Virus record (IMG/VR): IMGVR_UViG_2602041909_000007
Reading direction: 5' to 3' (one strand)
Length of the DNA stretch: 36,618 bases
Origin: a virus
Taxonomy: Duplodnaviria > Heunggongvirae > Uroviricota > Caudoviricetes
Numbering within the stretch: position 1 is the first letter of the stretch; each line of letters opens with the position of its first letter. The position numbers were made by a program, and so were the translations under genes. The notes below the pieces were generated by a model. It worked only from the letters and a program-made list of their open reading frames with translations, was not told the origin of the DNA and did not search any database. Positions 8,089 through 35,556 of this stretch are shown in pieces.

Positions 8089-9789
8089 TTAAACACTCGT
8101 CACGTTATACCAGGTGCCGTTAATCAGTTTCTGAAGCGGTCGGTAATACACGCCGCCGATGTTATCTGCCGAATTACTTCCGGTTTCCTGCACATTAATA
8201 CCAGATAATCCATGGCCTGAAGGTGAGCGAAATGTCCAGGATATCTGGTTACCTCCCGGGTTGTAATACATTTCGGAACCATAACGCACATCCTGCACGC
8301 CGCCTGTTTTGGTCTGGTAACGGGCATCAAAGTTTCCGTAGTCTGACGGTGTTACCCGCCCGGTAACGTTTACAGGTTTATTGCTCTGAATGCTGCCACT
8401 CTGAAAACGCAACACATGCACGCTATTGGCATAAACATCCAGCAGGCCATCACCATTCTGTTTCAGGCCGGTATCGTTATCCCCGAAAGCAATTGAGTTT
8501 CCGCCCAGCGCGTTCTGAACGCCGATACCCAGCGCACCATTCACCTGAGAGCCGCCACCAACAGACACTTTATGCGACATGGATATTTCACCCGTCCGCA
8601 GATTAATAGTGAACGGACGCAGGGGACCAATATCGCCATTTTCGCCCTGATTTTCCCGGGTGGGAATAAGATGCAGGCACTCTTCAGAGCGACGAAAAAT
8701 CAGGCCAAAAGCTTCGTTGAAAATCCTCAGTGCATTAACACCACGGACTTTCAGCTCCCCGGTCATGGTGTCGCCGTCGCGCTCAACAGCGTCTTTTGCT
8801 TTATCCATTGCAGCTTTTACTGCCTTTGATGTGGCGGCGCGGTCTTCTGCGTCGCTGTCGGTGGAGTTGCTGTACTGCGCAAAGCCTTTCTCCTTCAGTG
8901 TTGCATCCGGATGATGGCGGGATTTTTCGTGCTCTGCCAGTGCATTGCTCTGTTCCTCGTCGGGTGTCTCCGGGCGCAGGTCCTGTGGGCCGTCTCCTGT
9001 CATTTTTGCAAGTGGCGCGACAAAGTGTCGGAAGCCGTTACCGTCTGTATAAGACGCATGTTCCTGGCGGGCGCAGAACGTAAAAACGGTATTCCATTCG
9101 CCGGTAACAAATCCCTGCCAGCTTGCATCAATCCAGAGGGTATCCCCGACCGCAGCCGGCAGGCTGTAAGGTTTGCGCAGACTGACGCGCAGACCTCCCA
9201 CATAACCCACGCCGGCGGCAACAGTAGCGGTACCATCCTGATAGCTGACCTGAAAACCATCCCCCAGAAAAGCGGCTTCACCGTAGTGATCAAACGCCAG
9301 CAGCCGGCGGGCCTCATCCATTCCTGCAAGGCGCGCAGTGAAATCAATCTGCCAGACATCGGCGCTGACATCGATATGCATTGCTGCGGCCGCGCCGTCA
9401 AACTCCATGGAAAATGTGCGGATCAGGTTGTTTCCCTGCACGCCGTTCGCTGTTTTAATTTTTTGCTGACGAGGTGTGTGTGCAATCATGCAGAGCACGC
9501 CGCTTTCTTCGTTCAGCAGACCGATCCAGTTGTATTCGAAGTCGCCGACTGTCGTGTCCAGAATGATGGAAAACGCGGTCGCGTTCGGCGACAGGAGGCC
9601 GTACTGGGTGACCGGCGCACGATACTGAATCATGGATTCATCAGGGAGTATCTCATCGCGGGGGATCTCTGCGGATTCATCCTGTCCCGGAATATATCCA
9701 AAAACAAATGTATCCGGGCGCGCAGGTTTTCCACTGATGAGCTGATTCGCACACCAGTGTTCGTACTGTTCAGTAATAATTGTGCTCAT
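8089..9789 (-). CDS. Tail fiber protein (566 aa) with P2 gpH/T4 gp37-like C-terminal receptor-binding region
   Basis: Position between gpI-like and Tfa; contains phage tail fibre repeat-like segment (KAAMDKAKDAVERDGDTMTGEL) and Gly-rich C-terminal region; N-terminal domain shared with 6671..7528 product. Confidence 0.85.
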   Translation of the reverse strand: MSTIITEQYEHWCANQLISGKPARPDTFVFGYIPGQDESAEIPRDEILPDESMIQYRAPVTQYGLLSPNATAFSIILDTTVGDFEYNWIGLLNEESGVLCMIAHTPRQQKIKTANGVQGNNLIRTFSMEFDGAAAAMHIDVSADVWQIDFTARLAGMDEARRLLAFDHYGEAAFLGDGFQVSYQDGTATVAAGVGYVGGLRVSLRKPYSLPAAVGDTLWIDASWQGFVTGEWNTVFTFCARQEHASYTDGNGFRHFVAPLAKMTGDGPQDLRPETPDEEQSNALAEHEKSRHHPDATLKEKGFAQYSNSTDSDAEDRAATSKAVKAAMDKAKDAVERDGDTMTGELKVRGVNALRIFNEAFGLIFRRSEECLHLIPTRENQGENGDIGPLRPFTINLRTGEISMSHKVSVGGGSQVNGALGIGVQNALGGNSIAFGDNDTGLKQNGDGLLDVYANSVHVLRFQSGSIQSNKPVNVTGRVTPSDYGNFDARYQTKTGGVQDVRYGSEMYYNPGGNQISWTFRSPSGHGLSGINVQETGSNSADNIGGVYYRPLQKLINGTWYNVTSV

Positions 9790-26763: not shown

Positions 26764-26876
26764 TTTACGGGATTTTTAAATCCCGTTTTCGCCTGTTTTG
26801 TGCGCGCTTCATATATCGCGGCGCGTTTTTTGCTCATTTACGGGATTTGTGAATCCCGTTTCTGTCTGTTTTTTGT
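26764..26876. repeat. Two ~38-bp direct repeats each containing palindrome ACGGGATTT(n)AAATCCCGT; candidate parC-like centromere / ParR binding sites
   Basis: tttacgggatttttaaatcccgtttt (26764-26789) and tttacgggatttgtgaatcccgtttc (26838-26863); first copy is intergenic upstream of parM, second lies in the last ~20 codons of the gpA-like ORF. Confidence 0.4.
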
Positions 26877-29631
26877 TTCTACTGGTCAGGCCACCCCGCA
26901 GCAGGTCTGCTTTGCGGCGGGCGCGTTCAGTTGTTTCACTGATTCTCTGTGCGTGCTCTGCGTCACGGATGGCGCGCAGCATGTCAGAAAGCACGGTAAC
27001 GGGGGTTTTCATGGTGTTCTGGTCCTGCTGAAGTGTGGATGCCAGACGTGCGGCGGCTTCGGGGTCTGATGCCCCCAGCTGTGCCAGATAGCTGGCGACC
27101 GGGTTATGGCGGATCTCCGTGCTGCTTACGCCGTGATTACGGCTCAGGTGCTGCCAGAGCTGCGTGATTCGGCTGTCCGGGCGGGTATCCGGTTTGCGTA
27201 CAATTTCAAATCCCTGTGGTGCAATGATGCTGCCGTCAACGTACAGGCTGCCGCCCCGTAACAGGTGCTGCATCTGCTGTTCACCGATATGCAGGCCGAG
27301 AGATTCGGCAGATTCCCGCCATTCTTTAGCGAGTAATTCGTGGTTATCAGGCAAAGGCCGTGGCTGTTTGCGGCTCTGTGTCCAGTTCTGCATTTCATCA
27401 CTGCTGTTTTTTGCCTGCTTGTCACGCAGCGAACGCATCAGAGCCCGGCGTTCGTGCCGTTTCAGTGAGCGCATCCATTCGTTCACTTCAACGCCGTCAG
27501 GGAGCTGCGGCCACGGTGCTGGCCGTTCTTTCGGCTGTTCTGTCCCGTTGTTGTCCGTTTCCTGTACACGGGGACAGTTATTGCCACGAGTCCAAGGGGC
27601 GGCAGGGCCGCCCTGAAGGTCAAAACCATTTTCGCGGGCGCTGTCTTCCGCTTCCGGTTTACGTCTTACCAGCTTCCAGTTATCCGGATGTGTGCACACA
27701 CGGGAAGACTCCCCGATGAGTGGTGACCAGATCCCGTAAATCTGTACGCTCTGTTCGCCGTAATCGTTCAGCTCATCTGCGAGGTCGTAGGCGGTGCGAA
27801 TCAGGTAGTCTTTGCGTGGAACAAGTACGCCGCCCTGTTTTTCAATGTAGGAGGCAAAACACCCGGCATCAGCGGCAGCGAGCACTGCATCCATTGCGTC
27901 ATCCTTCAGCCGTTGCGGGCCTTCCGGGTTGCGTGCCATCTGGCTGGCAAGGCGGCGCAGTTCACGCCACACCTGACGGGAGGGGATGCCAAAGAACTGG
28001 AACTGGCGGACCCGGTGAAGGCGCGCCCAGCCGATGGCGCGCTCCACGCTCTCGGCCATTGATTTTCCGGTTTCGTGGTCAACGCGTGGCTTGCCCGTTT
28101 TCGGGTCGATACCATCCACGGCGCGGCTGTCCAGGTTCTTTCCGATGTAGGTGGCGATGTAGCTGGTTGGCGTGCCTTTTGAGCCGTCGACGTACTCCGC
28201 TTTAAAACGCGGAGTTATGTCATCGCCCAGCTCGTGGCGGTCTTCCTGAATGGCAATATCGCAGACGTGGGACACGATGGTTTCAATCTCGTCCGGATGT
28301 GCAAAGACCATCATATGCCAGTGCACAGTGCCGTCATGGTGAGGCTCCACCGTGCGGATGCCATACCAGCGAAGACCGTCGCGGTTCAGTTTTTTGCGGA
28401 CCGCCGCAAAAAACGTGTTAACCAGGTAATCGCTGGAGTCGCGCATGGTGGCCCCGTTCCATTTGGGATTCGGATGACCGTTCTCCGTTGTTGCGTGGTA
28501 TTTTGACGGGCAGGTGACAGTCAGAAACACCGCTCTGTCGCCACGGGCTTCGGCCAGAAGTTCCAGCCCCTTCATGGTGGCCATCATTTCTGCCTTACGG
28601 TGAACCGGGTTACTTACTCCCGCGTAATACACCGTCTCGAGATCAATCGTGAACCCGTCTTCATTTTCCAGCATGAAACTTTTCAGGAAATCGCGTGTTT
28701 TCTCGCGCTGTGCGCGAAACTCGCTTAATGCGTCCTGGCTCAGATAGGGCGATGTTTTTCTGGAAACCAGACAGGCGGCGCGGAGTTGTTCTTCTCTCCA
28801 CTCGCAACGTAACAGCCACAGTTTGCGTTTCCACCATTCCGCACAGGTCAGGCGAAGGACTGCGCCCGGCAGCAGCTCCGTGTCCGGTTCGTTCCTCCGG
28901 TCTTTATCTGTTGTCAGTGCGTCATAATGTGGAGGCATGATGTGCAGGTGTAACGCCATGCGGGCCAGCATCTGATACGTCTTCAGCGTTACATCCATGG
29001 TCAGTTCGCCATCGGTCGCGCCAAAGCCATCGCAGAGTTTTTCGAAGGTGCTGCTGAACATCGCCGCCGTCATGGTGGCCAGCGTCTGTATCTGGTGTTT
29101 GTTGAGCTGCGGCAGGTAAAGCAAATCGTCCAGGCGTTCGCGTCCGGCAAGGGAGCGATAACCCGGTGTCAGCCAGCGTCCGTCAGTGCGATCCAGACGT
29201 TCGAATATTTTGCGCAGGGTTCCGCGTGCATAGCGTTCCGCCTGCCAGCTCTTTTTGCCTTTCCGGCGATCGGCTTCCTGTTTTTTGCGCAGGAAGGAGA
29301 GGTGGCGAATAAGCGGATCGCGCAGATAGGACGGCAGCAGGCGCAGCGAGGCCATGGCTTCATCCACCGCGCCGCGTGCCTGTTTTCTGGCGTCTCCTGC
29401 CAGTGTGATGGTTTTGTCCTGTTTTTCCTGTGCATCCAGGCTTTTATTAATCAGGTTGCCCAGCGGCGTGGCGGAGAACGCCGCATCAGCCTTTTCCTGT
29501 CGGCGCTCGTTCTCTGCCCGGTAGGCATCCAGCCAGGAGGAAAGCGCGGATTCAGGTGCGGGGATCCCCGTTCCTTCACGCCCCACTGCGTGGCGCGGTT
29601 GTTGCCAGTCCCTGATGTACTCTGTCGTCAT
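26809..29631 (-). CDS. A: Replication initiation endonuclease (P2 gpA-like HUH rolling-circle initiator, 940 aa)
   Basis: HUH-type motif TVHWHMMVF and catalytic-Tyr region TSYIATYIGKNLD; position in early operon upstream of head genes as in P2; ~180 aa longer than P2 gpA. Confidence 0.8.
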   Translation of the reverse strand: MTTEYIRDWQQPRHAVGREGTGIPAPESALSSWLDAYRAENERRQEKADAAFSATPLGNLINKSLDAQEKQDKTITLAGDARKQARGAVDEAMASLRLLPSYLRDPLIRHLSFLRKKQEADRRKGKKSWQAERYARGTLRKIFERLDRTDGRWLTPGYRSLAGRERLDDLLYLPQLNKHQIQTLATMTAAMFSSTFEKLCDGFGATDGELTMDVTLKTYQMLARMALHLHIMPPHYDALTTDKDRRNEPDTELLPGAVLRLTCAEWWKRKLWLLRCEWREEQLRAACLVSRKTSPYLSQDALSEFRAQREKTRDFLKSFMLENEDGFTIDLETVYYAGVSNPVHRKAEMMATMKGLELLAEARGDRAVFLTVTCPSKYHATTENGHPNPKWNGATMRDSSDYLVNTFFAAVRKKLNRDGLRWYGIRTVEPHHDGTVHWHMMVFAHPDEIETIVSHVCDIAIQEDRHELGDDITPRFKAEYVDGSKGTPTSYIATYIGKNLDSRAVDGIDPKTGKPRVDHETGKSMAESVERAIGWARLHRVRQFQFFGIPSRQVWRELRRLASQMARNPEGPQRLKDDAMDAVLAAADAGCFASYIEKQGGVLVPRKDYLIRTAYDLADELNDYGEQSVQIYGIWSPLIGESSRVCTHPDNWKLVRRKPEAEDSARENGFDLQGGPAAPWTRGNNCPRVQETDNNGTEQPKERPAPWPQLPDGVEVNEWMRSLKRHERRALMRSLRDKQAKNSSDEMQNWTQSRKQPRPLPDNHELLAKEWRESAESLGLHIGEQQMQHLLRGGSLYVDGSIIAPQGFEIVRKPDTRPDSRITQLWQHLSRNHGVSSTEIRHNPVASYLAQLGASDPEAAARLASTLQQDQNTMKTPVTVLSDMLRAIRDAEHAQRISETTERARRKADLLRGGLTSRNKKQTETGFTNPVNEQKTRRDI

Positions 29632-29637
29632 ACTGAT

Positions 29638-30003
29638 TTACTGCGTCATACCGTTCAGGGTGTCACGGCAAACGGCAGCCAGCCGCTGAATTTCCAGCAC
29701 GGTGTCTTCTGTGTCGGCATGGCGATGTGTGATGCGGATGCTGTCGGCAATCACATCGACGATTGCAGAGGATGGGCGCTGGTAAATGCCAATAACGGAC
29801 GGAGTGCCACCTTCAATGCGGTAAAGCCTGTAATTTCCCTCGTGGCTGTCAATCATGTAGCGACCATCAATAACAATCTTTCCGTCAGCGAGCTGCGGTA
29901 CAGGCAGGGATTTCAAGTACATGTCATAACGTTCACGCACGCGAACGGCAAGATCACGCTCTGTGTTGAGCAGGTATTCAAGAAAGTCGTTGGCGAGAAT
30001 CAT
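29638..30003 (-). CDS. Hypothetical early protein (121 aa)
   Basis: ORF immediately upstream of gpA-like gene in same operon. Confidence 0.45.
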   Translation of the reverse strand: MILANDFLEYLLNTERDLAVRVRERYDMYLKSLPVPQLADGKIVIDGRYMIDSHEGNYRLYRIEGGTPSVIGIYQRPSSAIVDVIADSIRITHRHADTEDTVLEIQRLAAVCRDTLNGMTQ

Positions 30004-30075
30004 TGCGGCAATCCTCTTGTTACAGATGTGCGAAGGCCTCCCGCCGCAAGGTGCAGGAAAGGCCCGGAACAGGAA

Positions 30076-30306
30076 TTAATGGAGTTTGTTTTGCTGCTGG
30101 ATGAGCTGCTGAAGCTCGCGCAGATCATCCGCCAGATAACTGAAAACAGCGGATGAGTAGAGGTTTGAAAGTTCGCAGCTACGCTCATGCAGCATATTGA
30201 TGTGCATGATTTTAGCGACGCGGAATGCGCGGGAAAGTCTGCGGTTGATTTCAGTCTGGATGTGACGACGCTCCGCGATAGCGCGGTGCTGTTTGCGGTT
30301 TGCCAT
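30076..30306 (-). CDS. Hypothetical small basic protein (76 aa)
   Basis: Compact ORF preferred over overlapping low-complexity 205-aa ORF; lies downstream of candidate promoter/operator repeats. Confidence 0.4.
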   Translation of the reverse strand: MANRKQHRAIAERRHIQTEINRRLSRAFRVAKIMHINMLHERSCELSNLYSSAVFSYLADDLRELQQLIQQQNKLH

Positions 30307-30309
30307 GGT

Positions 30310-30540
30310 GTGGTCTCTGTAGTTGCAAGTTTTGAAAACTCACCATCCAGAGGTTGCAATTCTGGGTGGCGAGGCGTATGGGGTTGCAACCACCGGCAAC
30401 TACAGAAACCGGCCCGACCGAAGTCGGCCCCATGCGCCCCACCATAATTCGTGTGCGAAAAAGACGTGGCGATACGGTACGCACAAAAAAACCGCTGGCG
30501 CGGTTGTGCGCTGTAGTTGTCAGCGGGGGTTGCAATCCCG
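30310..30540. promoter_or_regulatory. Non-coding region with four GGTTGCAA palindromic motifs and an internal minus-strand terminator
   Basis: GTTGCAA at ~30322, 30353, 30383 (spacing ~31 and ~30 bp) and ~30529; hairpin CCGC-tggc-GCGG with 8-T run on minus strand at ~30483-30505. Confidence 0.45.
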
Positions 30541-30628
30541 GCACCCGTTTTATGGGGTGCAGCGGAAATGTAACCTGATTGATTGCGGCAGGGCAAGCGG
30601 TTTTTTTGTGTGTGCATGTTCTGGTTTC

Positions 30629-30928
30629 TTAGTGGTTCAGAAAAAAATCAAAAACCTTGTCAATGCGTTGCAGCAGCTCTTGCTGTATTGCTTCCGGCGT
30701 TTCCGGTTCGCCTGGCGCCTCCAACGTCGCGCAGAAATCCTCGATTTCATGACGGAGCGTCAGGCGAATGGCGAGAGGTGTGGTTCTGGCGTGCTCCAGC
30801 TCATCCAGCAGCGCCAGCACAGCAGACGGCGAGAGCATTGCGCGAAACGCCAGTAATTTTTGAGGCGTTGCCATTCGTTGCAGGTCAGTCGCCAGTTCGC
30901 GTAATTCCTTGTGGTTGATGGCGCTCAT
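30629..30928 (-). CDS. Hypothetical early protein (99 aa)
   Basis: ORF with ATGA-type coupling to upstream gene. Confidence 0.5.
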   Translation of the reverse strand: MSAINHKELRELATDLQRMATPQKLLAFRAMLSPSAVLALLDELEHARTTPLAIRLTLRHEIEDFCATLEAPGEPETPEAIQQELLQRIDKVFDFFLNH

Positions 30929-31170
30929 GCTCTGGCTTCCTTCAGTAGCTGGTTAAACATGTTGGTAAGTGGATTGCCGCACCCGAACGGCATCGGGTTT
31001 ATCTGGTAAGAAAAGCGACCGCCTGTTTTGCGCTCTTTTCTTATGACTGAACCGCTGCGCCAGAGTCGGCGTAACTCCGCATTAATGGCTGTGGTTGGGG
31101 TATTCAGTGCTGCGGCGATTTCTCCACCGCTACACCCCGGATTGGCAGCGATATAATCCAGAACGGTCAT
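30925..31170 (-). CDS. Putative winged-helix DNA-binding protein (81 aa)
   Basis: MTVLDYIAANPGCSGGEIAAALNTPTTAINAELRRLWRSGSV pattern typical of wHTH regulators; coupled to neighbours. Confidence 0.45.
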   Translation of the reverse strand: MTVLDYIAANPGCSGGEIAAALNTPTTAINAELRRLWRSGSVIRKERKTGGRFSYQINPMPFGCGNPLTNMFNQLLKEARA

Positions 31171-31370
31171 CTGCGTGACTCCTGTACCTGTCGGATAAGG
31201 TTCACCCGCACCACATTCGTGGCGCAGAAGTAAGTGCCGTCAGTGAGATAGATGTGATGTGCATCCTTTTCTGAACGGTGTTTGTCGATTGTGGTAATCA
31301 GGCGTTCATCGACTTCGTATTCGCTCCCTCTGGAGGTGAAGCGAACGACGGTAAATTGCTTAATTGCCAT
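31167..31370 (-). CDS. Hypothetical early protein (67 aa)
   Basis: ORF coupled to neighbours in early operon. Confidence 0.4.
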   Translation of the reverse strand: MAIKQFTVVRFTSRGSEYEVDERLITTIDKHRSEKDAHHIYLTDGTYFCATNVVRVNLIRQVQESRR

Positions 31371-31699
31371 TACATTTCCTTAACCTGGAAGGCCTGCACC
31401 ATTTGGTGCAGGCGGTACATGGTGCGAAAACGCGGGCGGGTGCGACTGGTGTCAGTTTCGCGTCCGTTAACGCGGTTCAGCCAGCCGTAGCCGTACCAGC
31501 GATTGGCAATCCATACTTCAACGACGTTGTCGTTGTGATGAAAAATCGCGTTGTGCTCATTCGTTGCGACGAGAACGCCTTCATTCAGTAGCTGCTGTAG
31601 CTCTGCATCCCATGAAGGGTTGAATTGGTAGACATAAAAGCCACTTGCGCTTTTCAGAATGTGACTCATCAGAGTCATGCGGTATTTCAGTTTCCCCAT
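31370..31699 (-). CDS. Hypothetical early protein (~110 aa)
   Basis: Start set at internal ATG 31699 (MGKLKY...) to avoid overlap with upstream gene. Confidence 0.4.
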   Translation of the reverse strand: MGKLKYRMTLMSHILKSASGFYVYQFNPSWDAELQQLLNEGVLVATNEHNAIFHHNDNVVEVWIANRWYGYGWLNRVNGRETDTSRTRPRFRTMYRLHQMVQAFQVKEM

Positions 31700-33825: not shown

Positions 33826-34384
33826 TAAACTCATTGTTTCTATCTATTTCAGCCTGGTAGGCCTCTAACTCATGCCGTAATTGTTGTTGTCTTAGTGGTA
33901 ACCTGTTGCGGCATTTCAATTCTGCTACAACGGTTTCCAAAAAATTTATCAGTTCTTCATCAGTGTATGAGCCAGCATAAATGTACGGTTTAGTGTTAGC
34001 GCATGTACAGTCTGCTGTTTCTTTAATGAGCATTGATTCGTCATCCATAATCTGTCGATAAAGTTCAAATGCTTCTTCGGCAGGAAACCTGAGCATGACG
34101 CCGCATACTGGTTCTAAAACCAATCCGAACGTTCCCTTTGCGTTATCCCGACAAAAATGGCCGTATTCATCGTCGGGATGCAGGGTGGCATCTTTCAAAT
34201 CTTCGCCATTCTGAAGCTTTGATTTAAATGCCATCAGGTCAGCGAACGTTCTGTGTAATTCGTGGTAGTCAATGCTGATTTCAACCTGTGGTTTGCCCGG
34301 AAAAACCAGCAAAAGCTTCTGGTGCGGCTTTTCGTTTTTCAGGGTTTCCAGTCGTTCCAGTAGCGCTTTATTTTTGTGATTCAT
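33776..34384 (-). CDS. Hypothetical accessory protein (202 aa)
   Basis: ORF downstream of cox-like gene; AT-rich (~43% GC by eye); 3' end overlaps the plus-strand 155-aa gene by ~50 bp. Confidence 0.5.
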   Translation of the reverse strand: MNHKNKALLERLETLKNEKPHQKLLLVFPGKPQVEISIDYHELHRTFADLMAFKSKLQNGEDLKDATLHPDDEYGHFCRDNAKGTFGLVLEPVCGVMLRFPAEEAFELYRQIMDDESMLIKETADCTCANTKPYIYAGSYTDEELINFLETVVAELKCRNRLPLRQQQLRHELEAYQAEIDRNNEFINSVVYRQDKNPKQNP

Positions 34385-35110: not shown

Positions 35111-35169
35111 TTGTTATCCTCTTGCGTTGGTGCGCTTGTCGCGCCTTGTGATGGTTTGTTTTGGCTTGT

Positions 35170-35226
35170 AAAGATAACCAAAAGGTTATCTTTGTGCGAG
35201 AGGTTAATACTCAAATGGTTATCTTG
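35170..35226. promoter_or_regulatory. Candidate repressor operator: perfect 10-bp inverted repeat plus third direct half-site at repressor start codon
   Basis: AAAGATAACC-aaaa-GGTTATCTTT at 35170-35193; GGTTATCTTG at 35217-35226 overlapping ATG of C-like gene; located in divergent cox/C intergenic region. Confidence 0.5.
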
Positions 35227-35556
35227 TCAATAGACTACGCAAAAAAGTTACGTCAGATACGTAAGGCGGAAGGGTTAACACAAAAGCAGTTTGCGGATAT
35301 TACTGGGTTGTCTTTGGCAACCATAAGGAATTACGAATCGGGGCAAAAGAACGCTAGAGCAAAAATCGTTGAGGCGGTTCTGCAAGTCGATCGCTTTGAA
35401 AAATACATGCTGTGGCTAATAAAAGATAAGACGCTACCTGTCGCCGGGCAGATTGCTCCGGCTCTCTCTCTTGATGGATCTATTCAGTCGGAGGGCGATC
35501 AGGTTTCAATCGGTATTACCCAAAAATCACCCCGATCAGGCCGCAATGTTGGCTGA
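35215..35556 (+). CDS. C: Immunity repressor, P2 C-type HTH (XRE-like) (113 aa)
   Basis: HTH LTQKQFADITGLSLATIRNYESGQ; C-terminal KYMLWLIKDKTLPVAGQIAPALS resembles P2 C (KYTLWFMTNQIAPESGQIAPALA) as recalled; start set at ATG 35215. Confidence 0.75.
   Translation: MVILSIDYAKKLRQIRKAEGLTQKQFADITGLSLATIRNYESGQKNARAKIVEAVLQVDRFEKYMLWLIKDKTLPVAGQIAPALSLDGSIQSEGDQVSIGITQKSPRSGRNVG

Follow-up and report, generated by a model that had tools for sequence, protein, structure and literature searches.

The stretch of viral DNA considered here, referred to as the window, is the 36,618 nucleotide (nt) IMG/VR record IMGVR_UViG_2602041909_000007 and represents a P2-type temperate phage of the P88 group (Xuanwuvirus, Peduoviridae). 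Its early operon runs leftward on the minus strand, from many small open reading frames (ORFs) to an ORF of 99 amino acids (aa), a gap, ORFs of 76 and 121 aa and then the gene for a gpA-type replication protein (gene A). The gap, we conclude with a probability of roughly 85%, is a self-contained RNA immunity cassette of the type known from P1 immI, P4 CI and Gifsy-1 IsrK. Two RNAs are encoded within it, one IsrK-like and one a member of the C4 antisense family, and the sites on the first that are complementary to the second are repeated immediately upstream of the 76-aa gene, a homologue of P4 epsilon. The cassette is an ordinary example of a known system and has been missed by genome annotation; both RNAs belong to curated families, the mechanism is textbook for P1 and P4, and no new kind of mechanism is involved.

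Two RNAs and their pairing sites in the gap

An Rfam scan of the window returned exactly two matches above the gathering scores, to isrK and to C4, both within the gap and both on the minus strand. The features of the gap, with the pairing sites, are:

30307..30628: the gap, between the minus-strand ORFs 30629..30928 (99 aa) and 30076..30306 (76 aa)
30596..30591 and 30572..30567, minus strand: promoter-like element (-35 TTGCCC, 18-nt spacer, -10 TACATT), read from the sequence and by comparison
30560..30485, minus strand: IsrK-like, c4-a1b1-type RNA (Rfam isrK, RF01394; 61.3 bits, gathering score 50, E 6.5e-11, all 77 model positions matched)
30560..30541, minus strand: hairpin 1 of the IsrK-like RNA
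30535..30528, minus strand: site a1, UUGCAACC, held in the loop of hairpin 2 of the IsrK-like RNA
30519..30511, minus strand: site b1, CAACUACAG, after a1 in the IsrK-like RNA
30505..30490, minus strand: stem of the IsrK intrinsic terminator, followed by a U-run to 30485 (terminator scan)
30484..30450, minus strand: 35-nt spacer from the IsrK terminator to C4
30449..30362, minus strand: C4 antisense RNA (Rfam RF01695; 76.8 bits, gathering score 45, E 1.7e-13, all 87 model positions matched)
30405..30397, minus strand: site b', CUGUAGUUG, in the loop of C4 hairpin 2
30391..30384, minus strand: site a', GGUUGCAA, in a single-stranded C4 junction
30359..30352, minus strand: site a2, UUGCAACC, in the mRNA leader, three nucleotides after C4 and complementary to a'
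30326..30314, minus strand: site b2, GCAACUACAGAGA, complementary to b' and overlapping the Shine-Dalgarno-like GAGA (30317..30314)

A preliminary description of this DNA had recorded a non-coding gap within the early operon, as is borne out by the minus-strand ORFs on both sides, and had listed a structured small RNA among its possible functions. That suggestion is confirmed by the two Rfam matches and by stems and pairing sites that covary in 50 relatives (see below). The internal minus-strand terminator that it described is the terminator of the IsrK-like RNA; the scan gives AACCGC-GCCA-GCGGTT at this position, and the run of T residues that follows GCGG is 7 rather than 8 nt long. The minimum free energy (MFE) fold of the C4 segment matches the family structure, with a long closing stem around two hairpins. 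The spacer between the two RNAs is of the same length in P88-like phages generally, 24-25 nt long in most other lineages and 107 nt in P4, and in the window the scan detected no promoter-like site within it (30450..30484).

The gap had also been described as containing four copies of the palindrome GGTTGCAA. Three are exact, at 30352, 30382 and 30528, with the copy at 30382 located inside a true palindrome, GGTTGCAACC, and the fourth, at ~30322, is AGTTGCAA (aGTTGCAAg), which retains 7 of the 8 bases. The 7-mer GTTGCAA occurs at 30322, 30353, 30383 and 30529, with spacings of 31, 30 and 146 bp. Counted over the whole window, neither motif stands out, with 5 copies of the 8-mer observed and 2.55 expected (15 of 100 shuffles reach 5) and 12 copies of the 7-mer observed and 10.55 expected. 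The clustering is local, the 322-bp gap having 4 same-strand copies of GTTGCAA where the frequency in the rest of the window predicts 0.035 (Poisson P ~6e-8). The TTGCAACC motifs are 'a' sites for RNA-RNA pairing, one in the IsrK loop (a1), one within C4 (a') and one shortly beyond its end (a2), and the fourth GTTGCAA (30322) simply marks the beginning of site b2. A second repeat, overlooked in the preliminary description, has the RNA-strand sequence CAACTACAG at 30519..30511 and 30325..30317, and its complement CTGTAGTTG at 30405..30397. This second set, CAACUACAG / CUGUAGUUG, constitutes sites b1, b' and b2. In the window, a' is matched to a1 and to a2 over 8 bp each, b' to b1 over 9 bp, and b' to b2 over 12 bp with 1 G:U, and b2 ends 7 nt before the ATG, at 30306, of the 76-aa gene.

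Ten loci with weak to strong similarity to the gap were fetched for comparison, namely P88, P88_4B11, three lambdoid phages including Stx2, mEp460-like phages, two phage-plasmids of ~48-94 kb, and two plasmids, an N15-like Klebsiella plasmid that encodes protelomerase and a P1-like Enterobacter plasmid. All ten have isrK and then C4, 24-35 nt apart, and the same tandem is present in the prototypes P4 (seqA region, CI RNA) and Gifsy-1. Despite their differing sequences, a' can pair with a1 and a2 over 7-8 bp and b' with b1 and b2 over 6-15 bp in 12 of 12 lineages, and in every one of these b2 ends 0-13 nt before an ATG. Some lineages retain complementarity solely by way of G:U pairs. The sites b1 and b2 of Stx2_131990 differ from each other and both pair with b' through G:U, a conservation of pairing that fits RNA and would be meaningless for a DNA site.

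With the 76-aa protein as query, 82 further loci were obtained, 2 in genome contigs and 80 in viral contigs, and 50 distinct upstream sequences of P88-like relatives from these loci were aligned (alignment A1). The stems of the IsrK-like RNA are 98-100% paired in these 50 relatives, and the three helices of C4 99.9-100%, both partners having changed in 5 of the C4 pairs. Variation in A1 is concentrated in the six sites, and the gap is consequently only 84.7% identical to P88_4B11 when the 1.6-kb region that contains it is 94.6% identical. There are five 'a' cores (UUGCAAC, UUUCCAC, UUCGCAG, UUCUCAA and UUGGAAC) and thirteen 'b' cores, in 17 a/b combinations, and the alleles at the a and b sites always change together with their partners. 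The b'-b1 pairing is retained in 100% of cases, with 7 of the 9 pairs compensatory and a covariation score of 0.721 against at most 0.124 for controls with a slid partner. For b'-b2, 97.3% are paired and 6 of 9 pairs have changed on both sides, and for a'-a2 the values are 90.8% and 4 of 8; a'-a1 pairing was checked sequence by sequence, as A1 has a gap placed inside a1. The apparent palindromy of the 'a' motif is an accident of the allele present in the window.

The preliminary description had suggested an operator array, downstream of the terminator, that controls a restart promoter, and the idea of a promoter is partly borne out. A promoter-like element is present near the 5' end of the IsrK-like RNA, upstream rather than downstream of the terminator, and it falls below the threshold of a sigma-70 scan that yielded no promoter in 29500..31500. 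Its -10 sequence ends 6 nt before the IsrK 5' end, with 30560 the seventh nucleotide downstream, and a TTGnnn-17/18-TAnnnT element is found equally far from the start of isrK in the other lineages compared, including P4 and Gifsy-1. The activity of PisrK in Gifsy-1 has been demonstrated experimentally (PMC4825925). Conservation among the P88-like phages begins sharply at ~30612, just upstream of this element, and the flanks further upstream differ and have different genes.

The copy of the cassette in the window deviates from at least 90% of its relatives at three positions, in the -35 sequence (TTGCCC, not TTGCCA), in the Shine-Dalgarno sequence (GAGA, not GAGG) and at 30433 (a C.A mismatch), deviations that may slightly weaken this copy. 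An invariant sequence after a2, GGAUGGUGAG, can base-pair with the 3' strand of the stem that closes C4, CUCGCCACC (30340..30375, minus strand). In the MFE fold of an unprocessed transcript, these sequences can form an alternative GGAUGGUGAG-CUCGCCACC hairpin that presents a2 in its loop and resembles structures A and B of Gifsy-1.

Proposed action of the cassette and its alternatives

By analogy with the characterised relatives, minus-strand transcription would come from the weak promoter-like element of the cassette and from an upstream early promoter. The first product would be a short IsrK-like RNA, ending at the intrinsic terminator and displaying a1 and b1, and read-through of the terminator would generate a transcript with the C4-family RNA, exposing a' and b'. 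Both targets are repeated in the leader of the epsilon-like gene, first a2 and then b2 over the ribosome-binding site, and pairing of C4 with a2 and b2 would block translation of this gene. The untranslated, C-rich mRNA would then probably be terminated by Rho, leaving the 121-aa gene and gene A silent. The short IsrK RNA, bearing the same targets, could act as a decoy that titrates C4 and relieves the block, and the specificity of the system would be set by the a and b sequences, which differ between otherwise near-identical phages.

The mature c4 RNA of P1 is cut from a longer transcript by RNase P. For processing of C4 in the window, indirect support by analogy is provided by STnc1160, a stable processed RNA that arises in Gifsy-1 downstream of isrK and from the isrK promoter (PMC4825925). 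The short IsrK of Gifsy-1 acts in trans on the read-through RNA and switches on the downstream anti-repressor gene (PMC4825925). In P1 and P7, according to PMC12197685 and PMC8546580, c4 RNA stops anti-repressor synthesis by pairing around the ribosome-binding site, and the CI RNA of P4, as summarised in PMC4825925, pairs with seqA and seqC and prevents expression of the replication genes. Translational control of the 76-aa gene by C4 is presumed from the overlap of b2 with the Shine-Dalgarno-like GAGA. The mRNA from 30362 to ~30100, which comprises the leader and the 76-aa gene, is C-rich and G-poor (C/G 1.3-1.9), and the scan detected no terminator-like site on the minus strand between the 76-aa gene and the 121-aa ORF or gene A, features that are compatible with Rho-dependent polarity if the 76-aa gene is untranslated, and no proof of it.

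Several observations weigh against this account. The promoter-like element is weak, with 8 of 12 consensus matches (the scan, with a threshold of 9 of 12, left it unreported), the closing stem of C4 has one C.A mismatch (30433), and the window has GAGA in place of the GAGG Shine-Dalgarno sequence of its relatives. The Rfam model c4-a1b1 (RF03163, 'a1, b1 targets of C4 antisense RNA') scored 14.6 bits at 30573..30520, in overlap with the isrK match, against the 46.7 required. On Gifsy-1 this model passes, with 48.1 bits, and overlaps the isrK match, from which it follows that both models describe the same element, and the copy in the window is better described by the isrK model. Lytic expression of gene A is hard to account for if C4 is made from all read-through transcripts. 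Phages with immunity repressors only 33-38% identical have epsilon-like proteins that are 89-97% identical. In addition, the Gifsy-1 study explained its locus by alternative folds and a small translated ORF, not by a c4-type antisense RNA.

Were that explanation to be transferred to the window, IsrK would act in trans to open a silent fold of the read-through RNA, translation from the AUG in AAUUAUGG (30445) would continue through 'C4' and activate the 76-aa gene by coupling, and the C4-like segment would be mainly mRNA and not a processed antisense repressor. This mechanism was established in Gifsy-1 by mutagenesis, native gels and toeprinting (PMC4825925), in a locus with the same layout of isrK, C4 and a2/b2; all 50 relatives retain the AUG in AAUUAUGG, and MFE folds of a longer window transcript have b' paired with b2 in cis and the 3' strand of C4 paired with GGAUGGUGAG, with a2 in a loop. 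The ORF that begins at this AUG has, however, no conserved length or stop codon. It has 64 codons in the window and ends 53 nt inside the 76-aa gene, has 147-149 codons in most relatives, in which it overlaps the whole 76-aa gene, and only 16 in relative L061, and through a +1 / -1 pair of indels its frame in the window differs from that in the relatives. Variation in the segment has no third-codon-position bias (31/38/37, p=0.67), and the segment matches the full-length C4 covariance model with compensatory changes in its stems. We consider translation through C4 unlikely to be the main function here, but the two models are not mutually exclusive, as an IsrK that acts as an anti-C4 decoy predicts the same genetic behaviour.

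The preliminary description had also offered DNA-level functions for the motifs, as operators bound by the 81-aa winged-helix protein or the repressor, or as the iterons of an origin, three helical turns apart. Four GTTGCAA in 214 bp (P ~6e-8), three of them spaced by 30-31 bp, with a MarR-type winged-helix gene 300 bp upstream and gene A downstream, could be read in this way. In relatives with other alleles, however, the sites lack palindromic symmetry, and the middle copy is in every case the reverse complement of the copies on either side (TTTCCAC / GTGGAAA / TTTCCAC; TTCGCAG / CTGCGAA / TTCGCAG), the unlike b1 and b2 of Stx2_131990 both pair with b' via G:U, and the alleles vary between phages with flanking genes ~95% identical. 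The same arrangement exists in lambdoid, P1-like, N15-like and P4 elements that have neither the winged-helix gene nor gpA, and the sites occupy conserved single-stranded positions, in loops or junctions, of RNA structures that have covariation support. An operator array is very improbable on this evidence, the same evidence gives no support to an origin-like set of iterons, and the ~30-bp interval follows from the layout of the RNAs, not from helical phasing. There is still less to be said for the gap as protein-coding, with the 205-aa ORF (30000..30617, minus strand) as a real gene. A stop-free frame of 187-318 codons does span the gap in 46 of the 50 relatives, gp51 of P88_4B11 is annotated as a 'transcriptional regulator' and matches PF10554 (Phage_ASH) with 26.5 bits against a gathering score of 26, and the old 'cI protein' ORF of P4 scores 59.7 bits on the same model. 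The window ORF has no Pfam match, however, and a 97-aa ORF that also crosses the gap reaches 16 of the 26 bits required on PF10554; Pfam searches with four gap ORFs gave no match or sub-threshold matches only. The 205-aa ORF and gp51 are identical at both ends and unrelated over residues ~28-90, as the window has one additional nucleotide at a1 and one fewer at a2, and ~190 nt are thus read in another frame. Stop codons interrupt the 205-aa frame within the RNA segment in three relatives (L053, L056, L061), the ORF overlaps the whole conserved 76-aa gene in another frame, and variable columns are spread evenly over its codon positions (31/38/37, p=0.67), in contrast to the third-position excess in the 76-aa gene (15/12/29, p=0.012). 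As summarised in PMC4825925, the product of the corresponding region of P4 is the CI RNA, not a protein. The frame analysis and the codon-position test, together with the stops in the RNA segment, go against a conserved coding frame across the gap and lead us to regard the gap as non-coding; the statement that it contains no credible ORF holds true only after such testing, the two ORFs that mechanically cross it both being rejected as coding. An RNA immunity cassette with a C4-family antisense RNA remains the preferred explanation.

Downstream genes, genomic setting and annotation

Downstream of the cassette, and at the right end of the window, are:

30076..30306, minus strand: 76-aa gene, homologue of P4 epsilon ('derepression'; Pfam PF25738, PHROG 3688, BLASTP)
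29638..30003, minus strand: 121-aa ORF, with no Pfam match
26809..29631, minus strand: gene A, encoding a gpA-type rolling-circle replication protein of 940 aa (Phage_GPA, 431.7 bits)
right end of the window: integrase, HTH_3 repressor and Cox-like gene, with the repressor at 35161..35556, plus strand

The 76-aa protein matches PF25738 (Derepression) with 29.5 bits against a gathering score of 27, its only Pfam match, and PHROG 3688 with an E value of 3.5e-45, and is 29% identical to P4 epsilon over 66 aa (BLASTP, E 1e-8). A role for this protein as a specific anti-repressor directed at the phage's own repressor was considered and down-weighted, as the epsilon-like proteins are conserved (89-97% identity) between phages whose repressors have diverged (33-38%), which makes such a role doubtful. 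The window repressor is 38% and 33% identical to the repressors of two P88-like relatives (L001 6891..7295 and L002 8038..8319), and the epsilon-like protein probably does not co-evolve with the repressor of its own phage.

The phages P88 and P88_4B11 are 94-95% identical to the window across 1.6 kb around the gap, and 1,259 of 5,426 complete E. coli genomes, about a quarter, contain similar DNA. The winged-helix gene upstream of the gap was assigned to the MarR type by Pfam; an NCBIfam search with the neighbouring small proteins yielded nothing useful. At least five unrelated sequences adjoin the left edge of the cassette among the P88-like phages (window ~30612..30646, minus strand; alignment A1 columns 1-40), and in P88 the gene block upstream of the cassette contains a lipoprotein / SPFH-domain gene. 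This junction, immediately upstream of the promoter of the cassette, has the appearance of an insertion hotspot for cargo genes. A contig labelled as Gram-positive ('Vagococcus sp. WN89Y', NZ_JBQPOM010000071.1) has a segment of a P88-like enterobacterial prophage with the cassette intact and an epsilon-like gene 84% identical, and is probably the result of assembly contamination. Further Rfam matches near the cassette in related loci, to ryfA RNA in two phage-plasmids (L007 1025..1323 and L008 649..947, both minus strand) and to an ALIL (IS3 frameshift) pseudoknot in an Stx2 phage (L004 4066..4182, minus strand), are unrelated to the isrK-C4 tandem.

The region of the cassette has no annotation in phage P88 or in RefSeq E. 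coli genomes, and elsewhere is occupied by spurious coding sequences (CDS) annotated as 'transcriptional regulator', 'ash family protein' or 'hypothetical protein', and recognition of the cassette corrects both. PF10554 matches over the isrK-C4 cassette amount to 59.7 bits in P4, 26.5 in P88_4B11 gp51, 21.9 in an 'ash family protein' of the N15-like plasmid and 16 in the window 97-aa ORF, the translations that match being encoded by window 30251..30617 (minus strand), L012 8168..8584 (minus strand), L003 1514..2131 and L010 2059..2235. Given that the frame changes from one relative to another and that variation has no codon-position bias, PF10554 seems for the most part to model translated RNA, and the annotations 'ash family protein' and 'transcriptional regulator' at these loci seem to be artefacts. 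A literature search, incomplete in its coverage, found no paper on the cassette in P88-like or P2-type phages, which is weak evidence of novelty.

The pairing-site alleles of the P88-like phages constitute a large natural set with which antisense specificity and prophage cross-immunity could be tested. It is conceivable, and we put it forward only tentatively, that P88-like prophages have a second, purely RNA-based layer of P4-type immunity that gates the epsilon-like derepressor and gene A, with a two-part a/b barcode that reassorts freely and that appears to diversify at a far higher rate than the genes on either side. In that event, the at least 5 a and 13 b alleles, in 17 combinations in 50 sequences, would define many cross-immunity groups among near-identical prophages, and the shared gene order would mean that satellite P4 and helper-type phages have exchanged the whole block of RNA cassette, epsilon gene, small ORF and replication gene.

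Comparison with known systems

The immunity region of P4 has the order PLE - seqA - CI RNA - seqC - kil/eta - epsilon - orf151 - orf106 - alpha. The Rfam models for isrK and C4 match this region at seqA (8692..8615) and CI (8507..8420), respectively, its a1/a'/a2 (GUGAGAA / UUCUCAC) and b1/b'/b2 (UUCACAGG / CCUGUGAA) have the same layout as those in the window, with b2 on the Shine-Dalgarno sequence of the next ORF, and a promoter precedes the 5' end of the first RNA by an equal distance. With the 76-aa protein an epsilon homologue, the gene order is also that of P4, from RNA cassette to epsilon-family gene, small ORF and replication initiator. There are also differences. In P4, an additional ORF separates seqC from epsilon and the seqA-CI spacer is 107 nt long instead of 35 nt, the RNAs are 62-69% identical to those of the window, the replication protein is the alpha primase-helicase and not a gpA rolling-circle nuclease, and no similarity was detected between Orf151 and the 121-aa ORF. 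The cassette is the sole immunity system of P4, whereas the window also encodes a protein repressor and a Cox-like regulator.

Citron and Schuster (1990, 1992) reportedly described allelic heteroimmunity at the a and b sites of P1 and P7 immI. This locus (a1 b1 - c4 - a2 b2 - icd - ant1/2) likewise encodes a C4-family antisense RNA that derives from the operon transcript itself and has two specificity elements, a' and b'; the targets are duplicated upstream (a1/b1) and downstream (a2/b2), b2 being at the ribosome-binding site of the first downstream gene. The P1-like plasmid has the same layout and the same 'a' allele, GUUGCAA, as the window. Allelic a/b differences between P1 and P7 result in heteroimmunity, according to PMC12197685. 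Unlike P1, the window has an epsilon-family gene downstream and, by Pfam, no homologue of icd or ant1/ant2 there, and its cassette is within the early lytic operon of a P2-type phage genome, upstream of the replication gene.

In Gifsy-1 of Salmonella (isrK - orf45 (STnc1160) - anrP), isrK (79.3 bits) and C4 (69 bits) are also in tandem, the terminator is subject to partial read-through, and an anti-repressor-type gene follows b2, which is beside its ribosome-binding site. Gifsy-1 is, in contrast, a lambdoid phage, its downstream gene encodes an AnrP/Ant-type anti-repressor, and in the model published for it a 45-codon ORF is translated across the C4 segment (PMC4825925), an ORF for which the window has no equivalent of conserved length. 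The 2016 IsrK paper has no mention of c4 (0 occurrences), although 'orf45' / STnc1160 of Gifsy-1 is a full match to Rfam C4. The Gifsy-1 segments concerned are 34131..34214 and 34240..34329, both on the minus strand. The isrK and c4-a1b1 models overlap on the same element, and IsrK of Gifsy-1 may act as an anti-C4 decoy.

The N15-like Klebsiella plasmid resembles the window in having the isrK and C4 tandem upstream of an icd-like gene, and differs from it in its downstream genes (icd-like and others) and in replicon type. At the anti-immunity locus of N15 itself, Ravin et al. (1999) are said to have described a small processed CA RNA that controls icd/antA-C. The comparison thus links P1 c4, P4 CI, N15 CA and Gifsy-1 IsrK/STnc1160 as one type of cassette, positioned before different effector genes across phage families.

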